Source: a phage
Assembly (NCBI GenBank): GCA_025611195.1
Contig: GCA_025611195.1_4718.2
DNA: 64,000 nt
Reading direction: 5' to 3' (one strand)
Shown here in pieces: positions 28,715 through 35,735 of the stretch. The first letter of the stretch is position 1. Each line of letters begins with the position of its first letter. The notes beneath the pieces were generated by a model. The model was not told the origin of the DNA. It searched no databases and was given only the letters and a program-made list of their open reading frames with translations. The translations under genes and the position numbers were made by a program.

Positions 28715-30301
28715 TTAGAAGTTGCCTTTGGTAGTTACCGCATCCACCAGGTTAAACAAATCAACACTCAGCTTGTAAACCTCCTGCTGGCTACGGTTGA
28801 GCAGTGGGCTGTACGCGGACGGGTTGATGTTCGGCATGGTGTACGGAATCGGTGAAGAGCCGTCAACGCTGATCTTGAACTGGCTGTCCAGGAACAGGTT
28901 GATTGCGCCACTCACCATAACCGCGTTCGGGTTGTTACCCAACATGGAGGGCAGGATATTGGTAATCATGTCAGAGCGCATCTGTTCAGCAGCGCGGTTA
29001 CAATCATACCCTTTAATGAACGGTACAGCGTCAGTAACCGCAACCGCCCATTGCCCAGGCATGATACCTAGTTCTGGATGGCCGTGGTTATCAGCAATGA
29101 AACGGAACGATTCCAACATGCGATACGTCATCGCAGCAGGCATCATCGCAGCAAGCGACGAACAGTACAATGTTGGGTAATCGATAACGTCCCAGCTCTG
29201 GCTATCGGTCGGCATCCAGCCAAACTCAGTGGTTGCTGATGTACCGCGACGAGCTTCCACATACGGGAATAACGTTAATACGTCACGGATATGTTCGCCG
29301 AACATCCGTTTCATGTCTACCCAACTCATGCTACCGCTGAAGGCGAATCCCTCATCACGCATGATCGCACCGAATACCGGATGTGCAACCAACGGTTCTT
29401 CACGAACAGCTTGAGCTGCTTCTACGTAAATATCCTCATTCTCTGCGCTACCTGGATGAGACCCGCTTTCGTACGTCTGACGAATAGCCCCGACGTTATC
29501 GAAGGCTTTTCTTAGATAGATGGTTGGGATGTTCGTATCAGCACTCGCTGGTTTGATTTTCTCCGTTGCGAAACACATTGCTGCTTCCACACCACGAAAA
29601 ACCGGTTCCGGTTGCGATTGATAGGAAGAGCGATGGACCACATCAGCGTAGGCTGGATCGAACTGCTGCATCACGTTCTGCATGGCTGGGTCCATGAACT
29701 GGTTATCAAAACCACCATTGCCTACCCAACGTGCTGTCGACGCATAAGTCAGCGTATCCTGAACACGAGTACTGAACTGAACATCACGATTAACAGGGTC
29801 GTATGCGCCAGTCAAAAGGTTCGTTGCGTCCATCGGGGTCGCGCGAACGATTTGCTTACCGAACATATCCGTTGTGGTTGTTTCGGTTACCTGGATTACA
29901 TTCGTGAAGAAGAACACCAGTTCGTTCGGTAGATCGATAGAACGCGTTGTAAACGCATCGAGGCTTACCGAATGGTCGGTGTATCCAGAAATGTAATGGA
30001 CGCGCTTGGTTCCTGGTGCAAGGGCCAAGGATTCTTCCACAGCCATCATGAAATGGAAACGACGTGTGCCCCAACCATTCGCAATCTCCGAAACCCCCTC
30101 AGGTTCTGCAGACTGCTGTAACAAACCGGTTGCAAGCTTATTGATTGCTGATGGGGTTGTTGCCGTACCGAACTTCGTCGTGTTAATAAAGTCTTCGATG
30201 CTACGCATGCTATCTGCATGGAATCGTAGTGGACGACGTTGTACGTTGTTGTACGGTGCGGTTTCAACCATCAGTATTTCACGAACATTCATCGGGATCA
30301 T
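28715..30301 (-). CDS. hypothetical protein (528 aa), possibly virion structural
   Basis: ORF track; followed by a terminator hairpin; no recognisable enzymatic motif. Confidence 0.55.
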   Translation of the reverse strand: MIPMNVREILMVETAPYNNVQRRPLRFHADSMRSIEDFINTTKFGTATTPSAINKLATGLLQQSAEPEGVSEIANGWGTRRFHFMMAVEESLALAPGTKRVHYISGYTDHSVSLDAFTTRSIDLPNELVFFFTNVIQVTETTTTDMFGKQIVRATPMDATNLLTGAYDPVNRDVQFSTRVQDTLTYASTARWVGNGGFDNQFMDPAMQNVMQQFDPAYADVVHRSSYQSQPEPVFRGVEAAMCFATEKIKPASADTNIPTIYLRKAFDNVGAIRQTYESGSHPGSAENEDIYVEAAQAVREEPLVAHPVFGAIMRDEGFAFSGSMSWVDMKRMFGEHIRDVLTLFPYVEARRGTSATTEFGWMPTDSQSWDVIDYPTLYCSSLAAMMPAAMTYRMLESFRFIADNHGHPELGIMPGQWAVAVTDAVPFIKGYDCNRAAEQMRSDMITNILPSMLGNNPNAVMVSGAINLFLDSQFKISVDGSSPIPYTMPNINPSAYSPLLNRSQQEVYKLSVDLFNLVDAVTTKGNF

Positions 30302-30302
30302 T

Positions 30303-31889
30303 TTATTTTTTTCCTCTTAAATTTACTACATGTTCATTTAATCGAACAACTAATTGCACAAGCTGCTGACGGATATCTGCTGGACAAAGCATCAATCCTT
30401 TACGATCAGCTGGGACTTTCTCAAGGATTTCCGGACCTGCTGCGGAAACATCCCAATCCCATTCACAAAACGCATCAGCCACCATGTTAATACCGACAAC
30501 CGGTAAAGTTGTACGTTCATCTTCATACATGGCATGCGGATACAATTTATTGACGGTAATGACCTCCTGTGGTTTTAACTGATGGATAATCTGGTAAACG
30601 TCGTCGCGTTTAACCTGGATACCTACGGTCAGCGCAGCCAGTTGAGGAAAACCCCAATGGTCTAATAAACACGCTGCGATCGCTAACGCTTTTGCCTGAT
30701 GTACGGCTTCAATCGGTGATAGACTTCTCGCTGGAAGATGGCTATCAAGCAACCATTGTGCCAATGCTCGGCATCCACGGTTGATTGGTTTTAACTCAAC
30801 GCTGTCATCATGTTTAGCGTAGGTGTATCCGTCGTAACGTTTTGCGATACGCGCATACATGTCTTCAACTTTACCGTAAGGTGCCGTTTCATCGATGTCG
30901 TGCAGCACCCGTTCCATCTGGGTAAGATACGCGATGTCGAGAATGAGTACGCGCGGTGAACGTTTATCTTTCACCATCAACGCATCGATCACGCCTTGGC
31001 TATCTTCGTCTTGCGCGTTCCCTCGCGGGGTTTTCTCGCGAATCGGTCCGCTGAAACGTCGTTCCGTACAAAGGTTATTCACATAGCTAAAGATCAACGT
31101 TACCAGGTGCGTACAACTTACCAACACCCCATCTTTAACGACAGGCTGTACGGCTTGGTCCAAATCGCGTACTGCGAGACGGCGAACGATGGCTTGTGAA
31201 CGCAACCAACCGGGTACTTTCTCCGTCGACATGTAATCCACTGTCATCGACAGCGTGATCTTTTTATCACCTGTCTGCGCACGGATATAATCTTCCAGTC
31301 GGTCGTAAGCAGCGATATCATGAATGCGTGTTTTATACATTAACGACATAGCTACTTCTTCTTTACGTACCGTCCCGTACGTTTTCCCTGCGTCAATCAG
31401 AAACTCCGCCCAAATCGGCACCATCAGACGGACGTAGATCGCTAACGCCGTTAACTCAACGTAATCATTTCGTAAATAGGTTTTCTCGGGTATATCATCC
31501 TCACCTAATGTTGTTTTCATGTCCGGCGGTAATTTTACCCAACCTGGGGTATTACACAACGCCAGAATCTCTTCATACACAACCGGTTTGTAAATTTCAC
31601 CAACAGCGCGGCTCAACTCCTCCATTTGTTGTTGTGGAGCAATGTAGTTATCCATCGCTTCACGTGCTTTAACGAACCCTTCGAAGATGTCGTCGATTCG
31701 ACGTGGGTTCTTTTGTTCTATCCAGGCGAGATACTTGTTAATCTCCCGCATCTGATTGCTAGCCATATCCCCATCAATCTTGATGTAACCCTGGCCTGAA
31801 AATTCCACGGTACGTCCGTCACGATGTTTGATGAGATAGTGATCCAGCTTTTCTTTGCCTTGCGTCGTAATGACGGGCACTATGTGCAT
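30303..31889 (-). CDS. hypothetical protein (528 aa)
   Basis: ATG at 31889 with AAGAGGTTG RBS; TATATTAC promoter motif about 90 nt upstream. Confidence 0.55.
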   Translation of the reverse strand: MHIVPVITTQGKEKLDHYLIKHRDGRTVEFSGQGYIKIDGDMASNQMREINKYLAWIEQKNPRRIDDIFEGFVKAREAMDNYIAPQQQMEELSRAVGEIYKPVVYEEILALCNTPGWVKLPPDMKTTLGEDDIPEKTYLRNDYVELTALAIYVRLMVPIWAEFLIDAGKTYGTVRKEEVAMSLMYKTRIHDIAAYDRLEDYIRAQTGDKKITLSMTVDYMSTEKVPGWLRSQAIVRRLAVRDLDQAVQPVVKDGVLVSCTHLVTLIFSYVNNLCTERRFSGPIREKTPRGNAQDEDSQGVIDALMVKDKRSPRVLILDIAYLTQMERVLHDIDETAPYGKVEDMYARIAKRYDGYTYAKHDDSVELKPINRGCRALAQWLLDSHLPARSLSPIEAVHQAKALAIAACLLDHWGFPQLAALTVGIQVKRDDVYQIIHQLKPQEVITVNKLYPHAMYEDERTTLPVVGINMVADAFCEWDWDVSAAGPEILEKVPADRKGLMLCPADIRQQLVQLVVRLNEHVVNLRGKK

Positions 31890-31976
31890 AACAACCTCTT
31901 TTCGCGGTTCCCTGTTAAAACGTCTTCGGCGACGTCTACCACAAAGGTAACATTTATGTCGCCTCTATGACTTTGT

Positions 31977-32001
31977 TCATAGAGGTAATATAAGCGTGAA
32001 T
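31977..32001 (-). promoter_or_regulatory. candidate phage early promoter (minus-strand ATTCACGCTTATATTACCTCTATGA)
   Basis: Fourth instance of the TATATTAC-core motif, upstream of the minus gene starting at 31889. Confidence 0.45.
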
Positions 32002-32131
32002 AATTTTGGATTCCGGCTGAGTTATCGCTCAGCATGCAAGGCATCCCGCCGAAGCGAGACACCTTGCACTAACGGAAGATATTCGCGTTACCTTCTGAGT
32101 CTTCGATTCAGAATGCGAAGCTGAAGCATTA

Positions 32132-32920
32132 TTAGAACGCTAAGCCATCAAAGGCTACCGACGGATCATCGTCGTCATTTGCGCTTGGTGCATCCCAACG
32201 GGTATCTGGGGCTGCTGGAGCCGAACGCGATGCGTTAGAGTTACCGTTGTACTGGCCGTTACCAGCATTACGGTTACCGCCGCCGTTATTGTTGTTACGA
32301 TTATAGCTATTATTGCCATTGCTTACGCTACGGCTTTCACCATCGAAATTGGTCGCGAGGATGCTTGGCAACACCGCACGATGAATACGTACGAATTCCA
32401 GCGCGCAAAGCGGTGAAACAACCCCGATCTGTAAAGGTTGTCCAGACTCATCAACCAAAGAGTGGAAACGTGGCGGCTTGAATACGAACTGGATGTTCGG
32501 TTTTTGGTACGCAGTTACGGCGATATATACCGAACCATCATCATTCTTACCAACCCATGTTGTACTTTCGGTAATCTGTTTCTTCTTACCTGGGTTATTG
32601 CGATCATCAATAACCTTTTCGTTCTTCATCGCAAAGCGTTGACCTGGTTTACCCTTAGCAACCTGCTCGAGGATCGCAAGCAGGTTATAGAACGCATATG
32701 AACTCATGCGTGCCCAAATGCTTTCAGCGCGACCCTGCTGGTCCTTACGACCTGTATAAACCGTGATACGCGGTTGATTCTTAGCAACGCTAATTTTCAA
32801 TGAGGGGACTGAATTGCCGCCCTCAACTTTTTCGTCCGCCCACAGTTTCCAGTTGTTGTCGTCGTAAGCCGTAGGAATAATGTTTCCTTGTGGTTTACTG
32901 CCCGAATTCCAATTGCTCAT
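32132..32920 (-). CDS. putative ssDNA-binding-like protein with disordered Asn/Gly-rich linker and acidic C-terminal tip
   Basis: C-terminus ...NNNNGGGNRNAGNGQYNGN...SANDDDDPSVAFDGLAF resembles the SSB-type acidic tail ending in F; N-terminal fold not recognisable by eye. Confidence 0.35.
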   Translation of the reverse strand: MSNWNSGSKPQGNIIPTAYDDNNWKLWADEKVEGGNSVPSLKISVAKNQPRITVYTGRKDQQGRAESIWARMSSYAFYNLLAILEQVAKGKPGQRFAMKNEKVIDDRNNPGKKKQITESTTWVGKNDDGSVYIAVTAYQKPNIQFVFKPPRFHSLVDESGQPLQIGVVSPLCALEFVRIHRAVLPSILATNFDGESRSVSNGNNSYNRNNNNGGGNRNAGNGQYNGNSNASRSAPAAPDTRWDAPSANDDDDPSVAFDGLAF

Positions 32921-32993
32921 TTTCAGCCTCGTTACGTAGTGTGAATCAATTTCTGGTTCAGATGATAGTTAATATTAGTTAAAAATTACAGCC

Positions 32994-33827
32994 TCAGCGG
33001 AACATGTCCAACAGAAAACGTTTTGCGAAGGGGTCGCGTAACTGGTTGACGCCAAAGCGTGTACGGTCTTCCGTTGTTAACGGATTCCACTGACTCTGTT
33101 TCGCAAGATCTAACAGCATCCTTTTTATTTTCACCGGCCCGCTGTTAAACTGTACGGCTTGGTCGCCGAACGTTCCCAATGTCATCTTTGTAAATGGGAG
33201 GTTCGCAACCTCTGGACGATCTCCACCAGTAAGTTTGGTCGACCACTGATGTTTTCGTTTCAAAGTTCCGGTATGACTCTCTACCAAAATAAGTTCACCA
33301 AAACCGGTTCTTGCCAACAAGTCAGAAACATAGTGCGTAGTGATATACGACGTTTTGGTTATCGTGGGTAATTTACAATCCATCGATTCGATATTGGGGA
33401 GTCGATCTACAGACGCCATCAACCCACGATAAAGTGTGGCGAGTCCTTTTTGTTTTTCGGTGTGTGGCTCCTTGTGTATAGCGTGCGGATAAACACGCTT
33501 TATTGACGCATAGGTTGGCGCATATATCCGCAAACGAATATGGGGAACGAGTTCATTCACCAACTGCCTTAGCTGCAGCAACTCGTTTTGAAAATCCCCC
33601 GTTATCATCGATAATGGTAATTTATGCTGTTCGACGTCTTCAAAGCTTTCAACAAAATTGCGCGCTAAAGTACGCAGGTTGAACAACCAATCCATCGGCG
33701 TTTCTGGCTGTTGCTGCACGGCTGATAATGTTGCTGACGTCCCCACCGATAAAGGATAATCACCTAACGTGCGGGCGTACATATCGCTCATACCCCACAA
33801 CTCCTTCTTATCATGGCAACGTATCAA
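32994..33827 (-). CDS. hypothetical protein (277 aa)
   Basis: ORF track. Confidence 0.5.
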   Translation of the reverse strand: MIRCHDKKELWGMSDMYARTLGDYPLSVGTSATLSAVQQQPETPMDWLFNLRTLARNFVESFEDVEQHKLPLSMITGDFQNELLQLRQLVNELVPHIRLRIYAPTYASIKRVYPHAIHKEPHTEKQKGLATLYRGLMASVDRLPNIESMDCKLPTITKTSYITTHYVSDLLARTGFGELILVESHTGTLKRKHQWSTKLTGGDRPEVANLPFTKMTLGTFGDQAVQFNSGPVKIKRMLLDLAKQSQWNPLTTEDRTRFGVNQLRDPFAKRFLLDMFR

Positions 33828-34953
33828 GCCAAGCAGAAACCTTTAAGGCATCAACGTTCGGGTATTTATTACGGATGCGTTCGACCAGCAAACGCTTAAC
33901 GTTGTCCTTTGTCAAGTCCCCGCCTTTCTCGATAACGTTATTGACAAAACTGTTCTTTAATAACGACTGGTTGTTCTTGGCGTCCGTTTTAATTGTCCAG
34001 ATAAAACCTGGATACAAAGAAGGGATAGAACGAAACGTTTTCGCTGCGTCGTCTTCCTTATCACAACGTATTCGGATGTGATCGCCCTTCTTCAATGAAG
34101 CCAATTCCCGTTCCAATACACGAATGATTTCATCTCCAACAAGACCGTGCAGTTTTATCGTCTTGTAGACATCTGCTTTCTTGTTCTCAACAAATTCCCA
34201 TTGGTCGTTAAACGATTCTGTTAACGTATAACGGAGGTACCCCTTTGGACCTTCTTCGCCATGCGACAAGCGACCGAACGAACCGCCAACCATGATACGT
34301 CCTTTCTGGGATTGTAAGTGGATATGCCCACTCACGACCCACCCTTGGGTCTTCTCTACCATTGCGTTATACGCATCGCTGCTATGAACACATGTCGCTT
34401 TTAACGCTTCTGGTGGAAGCTGATATTCAAACGCGCCGTGCATCAGAATGAAGTCCGGCGATCCCTTCTCATCAATAAGTCGGTTCACAGCCGACAACGT
34501 CACATCCGGATCGTGGCTGTAGTTATCTGGAAGATAGAGCACTTTTAAACCAAAGTCTTCATCAACCATGCAGAGATCATCGTAATAACGAACTTTCGCT
34601 CCTATCTCCATGACCTCGTTCTGTTCAACGAACCACTGGCTTTGCTTCTGGTCATGTAAATTGGTACCTTCAAGAAAGATCAACGTAATATCGTGTTTTC
34701 TCGCATACCGTAACAACCAGGTACCCCAGGCACGAACAGCAACCACGTCACTCGTTACAAATGTCGTAATACGATCGAAGACATCACCACTGAATGTAAT
34801 CACGTCAAGCAGCGCAGGATCTTCTTTTGTGATATAATAACGTAGCTGGCTAATCAGATTCACTGTCGGTGTTTGACGATGGATAAAGTGAATATCCGAC
34901 AAGTTGATTCCTCGTAATACCCCAGGCGTTTTATTTCGACTGAAGTCTCGCAT
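33811..34953 (-). CDS. Mre11/SbcD-like metallophosphoesterase nuclease
   Basis: Calcineurin-like motifs: FSGDVFD, EGTNLHD, ILMHGAFE, SGHIH. Confidence 0.55.
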   Translation of the reverse strand: MRDFSRNKTPGVLRGINLSDIHFIHRQTPTVNLISQLRYYITKEDPALLDVITFSGDVFDRITTFVTSDVVAVRAWGTWLLRYARKHDITLIFLEGTNLHDQKQSQWFVEQNEVMEIGAKVRYYDDLCMVDEDFGLKVLYLPDNYSHDPDVTLSAVNRLIDEKGSPDFILMHGAFEYQLPPEALKATCVHSSDAYNAMVEKTQGWVVSGHIHLQSQKGRIMVGGSFGRLSHGEEGPKGYLRYTLTESFNDQWEFVENKKADVYKTIKLHGLVGDEIIRVLERELASLKKGDHIRIRCDKEDDAAKTFRSIPSLYPGFIWTIKTDAKNNQSLLKNSFVNNVIEKGGDLTKDNVKRLLVERIRNKYPNVDALKVSAWLDTLP

Positions 34954-35735
34954 CAGAATTCCTCTAAGTTACTGCTGCTAATAGCCCCCGTCGTAGACGA
35001 CACGTTTTTACTGCTCGCCGACGCTGTTGTTGAAGAAGTTCTGGCTAGATTCAATCCGTTTAATAACCCACGCTCTTTTACCGTACGACGCGAACCATCA
35101 CGAACGTCGTAAAGGGGTACGTTATAATGGTCAAAAATCCGAAGCCATTGCACGTAATCAGCAACAACATGGTCTTTGCTTTCATTCGGAGCAAAGCGAT
35201 CAAGCTGATGGTCAACGTAAGCTTTAGCGCTTTCAGGATTGAAGTTATACTGTCGACGTGCTTTATCCACCATCGCGAGGAAACACGTGTTGGGGTCACG
35301 ATTGATGTATGAACGCGTCCGGATAAAGATAGCCGGTACCGTAAACAGAACCTTGTTGTTATTCCCGTCAGTGACAATATTAACGGCACGATGTGGTTGA
35401 CCTGCTATCTTACACCAATCGTGAACAATGGTACTGTTACTCAGCATCTCCGCGTATTCAGGATCCTGAGAAAACATACCCGCGAACGGATACAAGAAAT
35501 GTTTAACAAACAGCGATTCGGGCAGGATGTTGGGACGCGTCATCTCCTGTAAACCTTTTCGTAGAAGCTCGCTGTTGTCTACCAGCTCCTGCCACATGTC
35601 CGGTCGTGTTTTCGGGATGGACGGATCCTGAGCGCGACGAATGCGTTCTTCCTCATTTACAACCACTACCCCAGCCGGATACCCCAATAAATCCGTTCCT
35701 TCGCTAACGTTGCTGTTAGTTTGGCGCGCCTTCAT
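34953..35735 (-). CDS. hypothetical protein (260 aa)
   Basis: ORF track. Confidence 0.5.
   Translation of the reverse strand: MKARQTNSNVSEGTDLLGYPAGVVVVNEEERIRRAQDPSIPKTRPDMWQELVDNSELLRKGLQEMTRPNILPESLFVKHFLYPFAGMFSQDPEYAEMLSNSTIVHDWCKIAGQPHRAVNIVTDGNNNKVLFTVPAIFIRTRSYINRDPNTCFLAMVDKARRQYNFNPESAKAYVDHQLDRFAPNESKDHVVADYVQWLRIFDHYNVPLYDVRDGSRRTVKERGLLNGLNLARTSSTTASASSKNVSSTTGAISSSNLEEF

Follow-up and report, generated by a model that had tools for sequence, protein, structure and literature searches.

The chmC gene of a Goslar-type nucleus-forming phage encodes a predicted Whirly-fold protein with a putative SSB-like docking tip

Identification of the gene

The window analysed here is the whole stretch of 64,000 nucleotides of phage DNA presented from contig GCA_025611195.1_4718.2 (GenBank assembly GCA_025611195.1), and it carries on its minus strand, at 32132..32920, the coding sequence of chmC (imp6), a gene of the nucleus-forming jumbo phages. 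The open reading frame (ORF) is real; it has an ATG start and encodes 262 residues, its stop codon lies at 32132-32134, and a Shine-Dalgarno-like GAGG can be read in the sequence at 32927..32930 (minus strand), 6 nt 5' of the ATG (...CGTAACGAGGCTGAAAATG). The product combines a core that is predicted to adopt a Whirly/PUR fold with a disordered Asn/Gly-rich linker and an acidic C-terminal tip, and the tips of its family appear to share the C-terminal motif of bacterial single-stranded DNA-binding protein (SSB).

A tblastn search of phage genomes gave a full-length match of 98.5% identity to Goslar_00176 (gp176 of Escherichia phage vB_EcoM_Goslar), from which the window protein is separated by the four substitutions V38I, S153A, R232S and P235S, and, over residues 22-199, matches of about 32% identity to PHIKZ067 as well as over 60 phiKZ-like phages. 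By BLASTP, phiKZ gp67 is 33% identical over the core (E 4e-20), and the protein falls in PHROG 3284, which is labelled 'unknown function' (E 1e-35); a six-sequence alignment completes the evidence for the assignment. Pfam gave no match at E≤10, and the sequence search of the PDB gave none. The window gene is the chmC (imp6) of a Goslar-type nucleus-forming jumbo phage (Chimalliviridae), with Goslar gp176, phiKZ gp67, PhiPA3 gp61 and 201phi2-1 gp123 as orthologues; it is Goslar gp176, orthologous to the other three, that has been described as ChmC (Enustun et al. 2024, PMC11077065). The window protein agrees with ChmC in its sequence homology, predicted fold, gene position and disordered tail, and a misassignment of its sequence or fold is very unlikely. 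It is the same protein as Goslar gp176, with which it has in common its place in the genome, the Whirly core, the Asn/Gly tail with an acidic end and the basic residues of the Rmut mutant described below; the differences are at strain level only, and the window belongs to a relative of Goslar and not to Goslar itself. The preliminary description of this locus, made from the letters alone, had proposed a possible divergent jumbo-phage SSB, but the protein is no uncharacterised candidate: ChmC/Imp6 is already known and has been studied experimentally in Goslar, which is essentially the same phage.

The nearest database cluster, P0001 (263 residues, 145 members), carries the label of a Salmonella enterica serovar Schwarzengrund hypothetical protein; it lies on a 241-kb contig, and Goslar-like phage genomes do occur in Salmonella assemblies. 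The gp numbers used in papers differ in part from the GenBank locus tags of the Goslar record (MK327938). The 508-residue protein with an RNase HI domain is Goslar_00246 there (L007 43088-44614), whereas the preprint on Rhc numbers Rhc as gp190 and the ChmC paper uses gp246 for ChmA; for gp68, gp171, gp175, gp176 and gp177 the numbering agrees with the Goslar locus tags.

A predicted Whirly/PUR core

Structures were predicted with AlphaFold2 as single chains, and the family alignment was built from 118 sequences of a profile search. The putative nucleic-acid-binding core spans residues ~17-197 (32330..32872, minus strand) and contains the most conserved motif of the family, NQPRITVYT (residues 48-56). 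The predicted local distance difference test score (pLDDT) exceeds 90 at residues ~17-195, which are laid out as beta-beta-beta-alpha / beta-beta-beta-beta-alpha. The top Foldseek matches were MRP1 (probability 0.99) and human PURA, the structural matches in BFVD were uncharacterised jumbo-phage orthologues only, and proteins with the oligonucleotide/oligosaccharide-binding (OB) fold were absent from the structural matches of both fold searches. The core is thus predicted to have a Whirly/PUR fold and not an OB fold, and the preliminary impression that the N-terminal domain is no recognisable OB fold was right. Structural alignments with Whirly, MRP and PUR proteins have 8-14% sequence identity, and no sequence relationship to these families could be detected by the Pfam and PDB sequence searches.

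When compared with plant Whirly (p24/PBF-2, that is StWhy1, and StWhy2), T. brucei MRP1/MRP2 and PUR-alpha, the predicted ChmC core, at a sequence identity of 9-14%, displays the Whirly fold with its tetramer-forming helical element, but its repeats are of the beta-beta-beta-alpha type, whereas the canonical Whirly repeat is beta-beta-beta-beta-alpha. To our knowledge, Whirly, MRP and PUR proteins have neither a Gly/Asn linker nor an SSB-type tip.

The ChmC paper also predicted a Whirly fold by AlphaFold and found a homotetramer by size-exclusion chromatography (SEC) with multi-angle light scattering (PMC11077065). In PhiPA3 ChmC the mutants K30A/K48A/K59A (Kmut) and R35A/R44A/R63A (Rmut) lose binding, Rmut abolishing that of both RNA and single-stranded DNA (ssDNA) (PMC11077065). 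In the six-sequence alignment the Rmut arginines are conserved in the window protein as K42, R51 and R71, of which R51 sits in NQPRITVYT. The Kmut lysines correspond to S37, Y55 and E66, with other basic residues nearby, which fits the fact that the ChmC paper made only the Rmut version for Goslar.

Published function of ChmC/Imp6

ChmC is produced early, is very abundant and is found in or on the phage nucleus (PMC11077065). The PhiPA3 protein binds single-stranded RNA (ssRNA) about three times better than ssDNA, with dissociation constants (Kd) of 58 nM vs 184 nM, and enhanced crosslinking and immunoprecipitation (eCLIP) places ChmC on phage mRNAs in vivo (PMC11077065). Its condensates are stimulated by RNA and require the C-terminal 50-70 residues. 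Knockdown of Goslar gp176 by dCas13d reduced plaquing to ~4% and resulted in smaller nuclei with less DNA, in mRNA trapped in the phage nucleus and in lower levels of phage proteins. Goslar ChmC without its tail (delta-C) supports growth of the nucleus and still localises as puncta at the nuclear perimeter, and does not rescue titre. PhiPA3 ChmC decorates the nuclear shell, and deletion of its tail abolishes this localisation while RNA binding and the tetramer are kept (all PMC11077065). The name Imp6 was given to the phiKZ orthologue, gp67, for its direct binding to the import factor Imp1/PicA (gp69) in a complex that is stable in SEC, with an Imp1:gp67 ratio of ~1:2 (10.1101/2024.03.27.586873); no transposon insertions were recovered in phiKZ orf67, and reviews now use the name ChmC/Imp6. 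ChmC and RNA polymerase are both contained in a pulldown of Rhc, a DNA-polymerase subunit with an RNase HI domain (Rhc preprint).

The disordered linker and the C-terminal tip

The C-terminus quoted in the preliminary description is read verbatim in the translation of 32132-32920 (...SNGNNSYNRNNNNGGGNRNAGNGQYNGNSNASRSAPAAPDTRWDAPSANDDDDPSVAFDGLAF), and its reading as a flexible linker followed by an acidic tip, in the manner of SSB, is borne out: a disordered Gly/Asn-containing linker leads to an acidic tip with a terminal aromatic residue. AlphaFold2 leaves residues 198-262 disordered, with pLDDT mostly below 50 save for a weak helix at 253-257 (pLDDT ~51). The linker (residues 198-248; 32177..32329, minus strand) is composed of 29% Asn and 14% each of Gly, Ser and Ala, has a pLDDT of ~40, and includes one YNR 'sticker' and a SAPAAP element. 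In its densest stretch 21 of 29 residues are Asn or Gly, and no other of the 79 window ORFs of at least 100 residues exceeds 13, which argues that the tail is not a chance feature. The net charge changes along the protein from about +7/+8 in the core to +2 in the linker and -5 in the last 14 residues. The layout of core, Gly/Asn linker and acidic tip recurs in the 1240 cluster representatives of the family (E≤1e-3). Tails in the family have a median length of 53 residues and contain 28% Gly and 15% Asn. The Goslar clade differs from most of the family in its longer tail (70 residues vs the median of 53), in having more Asn than Gly and in an extended, non-canonical tip.

The acidic tip of the window protein (DDDDPSVAFDGLAF, residues 249-262; 32135..32176, minus strand) is a divergent, extended form of a more widely conserved element, which we characterised in 150 representatives less than 50% identical to each other, drawn from those 1240 clusters. 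After a Gly/Asn linker that cannot be aligned, these sequences have the consensus F-D-D-D-[IL]-P-[FW]. Position -7 is Phe in 33/150 and position -6 Asp in 81/150; Asp or Glu occupies position -5 in 130 and position -4 in 119 of the representatives, position -3 is Ile, Leu, Phe, Met or Val in 135, position -2 is Pro in 124, and the last residue is Phe (93), Trp (20) or Met (18), together 131/150. The full pattern [DE][DE][ILMFV]P[FW]$ fits 69 of the 150. The HMMER consensus of the tail, sddfdDDiPF, can be set beside the end of E. coli SSB, MDFDDDIPF (PDB 1EQQ/4MZ9), and as a control in bacterial genomes 103 of 111 ORFs that end in DDDIPF followed by a stop match Pfam SSB; the tails of these control proteins resemble ChmC tails overall, as in Silanimonas (...GGGGGYGNRGGGSAPPAQSNDPFPDDDIPF). 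Position counts and a genomic control were used because the tip motif is too short for E-value statistics. Judged by these comparisons, the tip of the ChmC family matches the C-terminal tip motif of bacterial SSB and would be a short linear motif on which purifying selection acts strongly. The Pro-Phe pair of this motif (SSB-Ct) in SSB enters a hydrophobic pocket of the partner and its Asp residues touch Arg (PMC7145534).

The ChmC paper has another explanation for this end of the protein, namely that the tail is generic low-complexity sequence, a condensate-forming Asn/Gly region followed by an 'electronegative cluster' without a specific motif; there the Ser/Asp/Glu-rich end limits non-specific RNA binding and the delta-C phenotypes reflect lost condensation (PMC11077065). 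The tips of the model phages do differ among themselves, as this explanation would allow, but pure electrostatics would not hold a Pro at -2, an aliphatic residue at -3 and an aromatic residue or Met at -1 at the frequencies given above beside linkers that cannot be aligned. A conserved hydrophobic-Pro-aromatic ending points to a distinct element, since acidity alone would not require it, and we consider a purely generic tail distinctly improbable.

Strictly, the D-D-D-[IL]-P-F ending of SSB is found in the ChmC family and not in the window protein, which keeps the acidic run and the terminal Phe, lacks the Pro-Phe pair and ends in ...LAF instead of ...IPF. The Goslar clade shares the lengthened tip (P0001, ...DDDDPSIAFDGLAF; P0002/P0003, ...DDDDAAPAFQGLPL), an acidic run followed by P-S-V-A-F and then by D-G-L-A-F or, in the more distant members, ...AAPAFQGLPL. 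In the literature searched, no link was found between SSB and ChmC, Chimalliviridae or the phage nucleus; the ChmC paper does not use the word SSB (PMC11077065). The likeness probably went unnoticed because the model phages have tips that depart from the consensus, and an SSB-type tip throughout the family, which we did not find described in the literature searched, appears to be a new point.

Several observations on the tails stand apart from this. The hexapeptide SAPAAP of the window linker (residues 233-238; its entry is given at window 32183-32200, residues 241-246) is identical to part of the E. coli SSB linker (...QQSAPAAPSNEPPMDFDDDIPF) and lies at a similar distance from the acidic run in both proteins, and Goslar proper reads SASAAP. 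Of 262 family tails, 21 have the pattern [SNT]AP[AP], at a distance of 11-28 residues from the C-terminal end (11-18 in most); in none does it lie further inside the linker. We considered SAPAAP as a recent capture from a host SSB tail and rejected it: a similar element is present in just 8% of family tails and no similarity was found at the DNA level, so that it remains a curiosity. Bacterial SSB tails are often ChmC-like overall, with Gly runs containing Tyr, Asn or Arg, a SAPPA-like element and an acidic tip, and this likeness raises the question whether ChmC took its tail from an ssb gene or arrived at it by convergence. Three family members, P0073 (480 residues), P0155 (466) and P0216 (420), are about twice as long as usual, carry the ChmC-like region in their C-terminal half (e.g. 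residues 184-420) and may be fusions, duplications or gene-calling artefacts.

Comparison with single-stranded DNA-binding proteins

Like ChmC, bacterial SSB (PF00436; the E. coli protein of PDB 1EQQ/4MZ9) has a homo-oligomeric core that binds single strands, a disordered linker and an acidic hydrophobic-Pro-Phe tip. The linker of E. coli SSB drives phase separation, as does the tail of ChmC. A disordered linker directly after the binding domain, which is 25-125 residues long in SSBs (PMC7145534), is likewise present in ChmC. The two proteins differ in that SSB binds ssDNA by an OB core, whereas ChmC has a Whirly core, no Pfam SSB match and a preference for RNA. The window protein has neither the OB fold nor the profile match by which bacterial-type SSBs are defined.

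Acidic C-terminal tails are also found in T4 gp32 and T7 gp2.5, where they regulate nucleic-acid binding and recruit replisome proteins, and the essential C-terminal Phe of gp2.5 is a further likeness to the ChmC tip; both differ from ChmC in their OB-fold cores and in acting at replication forks, on ssDNA. No SSB, gp32 or gp2.5-type Pfam family was present among the matches listed for the 72 window ORFs and the ORFs covering the rest of the Goslar genome, and phmmer with E. coli SSB found no homologue in the window or the Goslar genome. The Pfam replication families found there were a divergent PolB, a DnaB-like helicase, an NAD ligase, RNase H, RuvC and SbcC/D-like proteins. Iyer et al. counted a classic OB-fold SSB among the hallmarks of jumbo-phage group 2 and not of the phiKZ-like group 1, and chimalliviruses have been described as being without identifiable clamps and primases, with no SSB mentioned (Rhc preprint). 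The missing conventional SSB keeps the idea of an SSB alive without proving it; it is no proof of absence, as a divergent phage SSB could escape Pfam.

In its strong form this idea would make ChmC the missing replicative and recombination SSB of the Chimalliviridae, which would coat ssDNA in the nucleus and recruit replisome and repair enzymes by its tip, RNA binding being secondary or additional. The three-part architecture of an oligomeric core, linker and DDD[IL]PF tip fits such a role, as do the bacterial control, in which DDDIPF at the stop marks an SSB, the shared phase separation through the linker and the attribution of the classic OB-fold SSB to group 2. The plant Whirly proteins among the best fold matches are genuine ssDNA-binding proteins of organelles, and PhiPA3 ChmC does bind ssDNA; the protein is early and very abundant, and its gene adjoins flap-endonuclease-like and SbcD-like genes. 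The same body of evidence, however, has ssRNA bound better than ssDNA, phage mRNAs occupied in vivo and PhiPA3 ChmC on the nuclear shell and not on the DNA mass. The smaller nuclei with less DNA after knockdown, which a replicative SSB would explain, can also be put down to a global loss of protein synthesis by the phage; co-purification with Rhc is open to nucleic-acid bridging, since the same pulldown holds RNA polymerase; and the silence of Pfam proves little, since phage SSBs are often too divergent to be recognised. The main evidence against the strong form is that nuclei grow, hence DNA is replicated, with tail-less Goslar ChmC, so that the tip is not essential for replisome assembly. 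We consider it unlikely that ChmC is the replicative SSB. Of the divergent jumbo-phage SSB proposed in the preliminary description, there remain the SSB-like layout, the ssDNA binding of the PhiPA3 orthologue (184 nM) and, at the level of the family, the SSB-Ct motif; the divergent OB fold is replaced by a Whirly/PUR core, a replicative role would be conjectural, and the preference for ssRNA (58 nM), the bound phage mRNAs and the ...LAF ending of the window protein weigh against the proposal.

The published work on Imp6 allows a different role for the tip, that of an anchor of ChmC/Imp6 to Imp1/PicA or to the ChmA shell, in which case ChmC would mainly belong to the transport machinery of the shell and its likeness to SSB would be convergent. 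The stable complex of phiKZ gp67 with Imp1 is in keeping with this, as is the conserved position of imp1/picA two genes downstream. Imp1 forms puncta at the nuclear periphery, and Goslar ChmC forms puncta too; the PhiPA3 protein loses its place on the shell with its tail, RNA binding and tetramer remaining intact, but Goslar delta-C keeps its puncta at the nuclear perimeter. The PicA proteins of Goslar and phiKZ share only 22% identity, and a motif constrained solely by a partner that evolves so fast would be expected to drift, whereas the tip, in phages of many different hosts, remains identical to the one found universally in bacterial SSBs. Attractive as it is with PicA as a known direct partner, anchoring as the function of the tip appears to us rather unlikely.

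Gene neighbourhood and the 3' intergenic region

The gene order SbcD-like, gp66-like, chmC, a gp68-like non-virion RNA polymerase (nvRNAP) subunit, and Imp1/PicA is kept in Goslar, phiKZ and Bacillus phage AgentSmith. In the window, all of these genes lie on the minus strand. Downstream of chmC are the orthologue of phiKZ gp68 and Goslar gp175 (30303..31889; BLASTP 1e-34), the latter listed as an nvRNAP subunit (PMC13648698), and the orthologue of phiKZ gp69 (Imp1/PicA; 28715..30301), which matches over its full length (BLASTP 9e-17; PHROG 3141). Upstream are the orthologue of phiKZ gp66 and Goslar gp177 (32994..33827; BLASTP 1e-24; PHROG 3229), described as related to T4 RNase H, of the flap endonuclease type (PMC13648698), and an SbcD/Mre11-like nuclease (33811..34953; Goslar gp178, phiKZ gp65), assigned from PHROG 100 at 3e-41 and the phiKZ annotation. 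The longest ORF of the gp66 homologue starts from TTG (277 residues) and overlaps the end of the SbcD-like gene (33811), and the Goslar annotation starts gp177 from an ATG equivalent to window 33791 (265 residues); in the long form, residue 15 is the first to align with phiKZ gp66 by BLASTP, and this speaks for the ATG. The homologue of Goslar gp179 (34953-35735, minus strand, 260 residues), three genes upstream of chmC, has a Ser/Thr-rich low-complexity tail and an acidic-aromatic tip of its own (...SSTTGAISSSNLEEF).

Between chmC and the gene of the nvRNAP subunit lies a structured intergenic region (31890..32131, minus strand) made up of a chain of hairpins, with the inverted repeats I1-I3 and I7. 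Its RNA has a predicted minimum free energy of -88.3 kcal/mol vs -60.9 +/- 4.65 kcal/mol for shuffled sequences (z = -5.9), and it holds a 16-bp stem with a UUCG tetraloop at ~32035-32068. Rfam gave no family at threshold for this region, the only match being a sub-threshold istR (19.6 bits vs a gathering score of 45). The structure may serve the very highly expressed chmC in termination, in processing or as a stability element. Positions 31951-31988 are a 38-nt insertion relative to Goslar that is itself a hairpin (CCUCUAUG...CAUAGAGG), and a quasi-palindromic hairpin of 21 nt at 32091-32111 (minus strand TTCTGAATCGAAGACTCAGAA) matches exactly the reverse complement of what Goslar has there (TTCTGAGTCTTCGATTCAGAA); the latter difference is a hairpin 'flip' of the kind made by template switching at imperfect palindromes. 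On the coding strand, neither sigma-70 promoters nor intrinsic terminators turned up in a scan, in line with transcription of the phage by RNA polymerases of its own.

Genes of the phage nucleus and of replication are densely packed in the 64-kb window, and 64 of its 72 ORFs lie on the minus strand. Among the products are a divergent family B DNA polymerase with an SH3 domain, a chimallin-family protein, the PhuZ tubulin and several nvRNAP subunits of the beta type, as well as helicases, a thymidylate synthase and an HD-domain protein.

Discussion

We propose an account of ChmC in four steps, to which as a whole we give a probability of roughly 85%. Residues ~17-197 fold, by prediction here and in the literature, into a Whirly/PUR domain which, in the PhiPA3 orthologue, assembles into a homotetramer and binds single-stranded nucleic acid by a basic face. 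From the literature on Goslar gp176 itself, ChmC binds phage mRNAs and is needed for the exit of mRNA from the nucleus, the production of phage proteins and the yield of virions, and the phiKZ orthologue forms a stable complex with Imp1/PicA, which is encoded two genes downstream. The tail of 65 residues is in its composition a disordered Asn/Gly linker, which according to the literature drives condensates; it would do so through multivalent weak contacts. The last residues would be a separate acidic docking motif with a C-terminal aromatic residue that most likely works like the SSB tip and tethers a partner protein, by a basic and hydrophobic pocket of the latter, to the tetramer on its nucleic acid; when unbound, the tip may fold back on the basic Whirly face and damp non-specific binding. 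By analogy with SSB, the tip should do one or the other, and the Goslar lineage would carry a lengthened variant of it.

A number of points weigh against this account, most of them against its last step, which is the one that we infer. A 20-column profile of 142 ChmC tails found no significant SSB match in the PDB; there were three hits at E 1.1-6.7, and one of these, also non-significant, was a DnaG-SSB-Ct chimera matched at GSMDFDDDIPF. The four phages that have been studied all depart from the consensus (PhiPA3 FDDEIPNF, phiKZ FDEDMPSF, 201phi2-1 ...TELASFDW and Goslar ...VAFDGLAF), so that at least some lineages can do without an exact Pro-Phe end. AlphaFold2 monomers give no hint of a docking site, with a pLDDT of ~50 for the tip of the window protein and 48-57 for the tail of P0104, an orthologue with a canonical tip. 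The published delta-C deletions remove linker and tip together, and condensation and docking are thus not separable in them. The role of ChmC in mRNA export is itself graded as 'potential' or 'likely' in the literature, its mechanism being unproven.

We also put forward, as a tentative possibility, that ChmC is the functional counterpart of SSB in nucleus-forming phages, a Whirly tetramer with an acquired or convergent SSB tail that would serve as a recruitment hub on nascent mRNA, R-loops and ssDNA within the phage nucleus. Its tip would then have as candidate clients proteins with pockets of the SSB-Ct type, be it Rhc with its RNase HI domain, the replisome, Imp1/PicA or host proteins that are imported, or the tip might mimic host SSB; if this is true, the delta-C phenotypes would be due to loss of the motif and not to loss of condensation.

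The gene itself needs no new explanation, as ChmC/Imp6 is a core, essential factor of the phage nucleus. The C-terminus of its family, however, is the motif by which bacterial SSBs recruit at least 17 partners, and it occurs in phages without a recognisable SSB, sliding clamp or primase. If the tip docks, it would offer a direct handle for identifying whatever ChmC delivers, at the nuclear shell, to RNA or ssDNA, and the 'condensate' and 'adaptor' accounts of the tail-deletion phenotypes would become separable. The tip also raises the question whether bacterial defence systems that sense SSB detect these phages.

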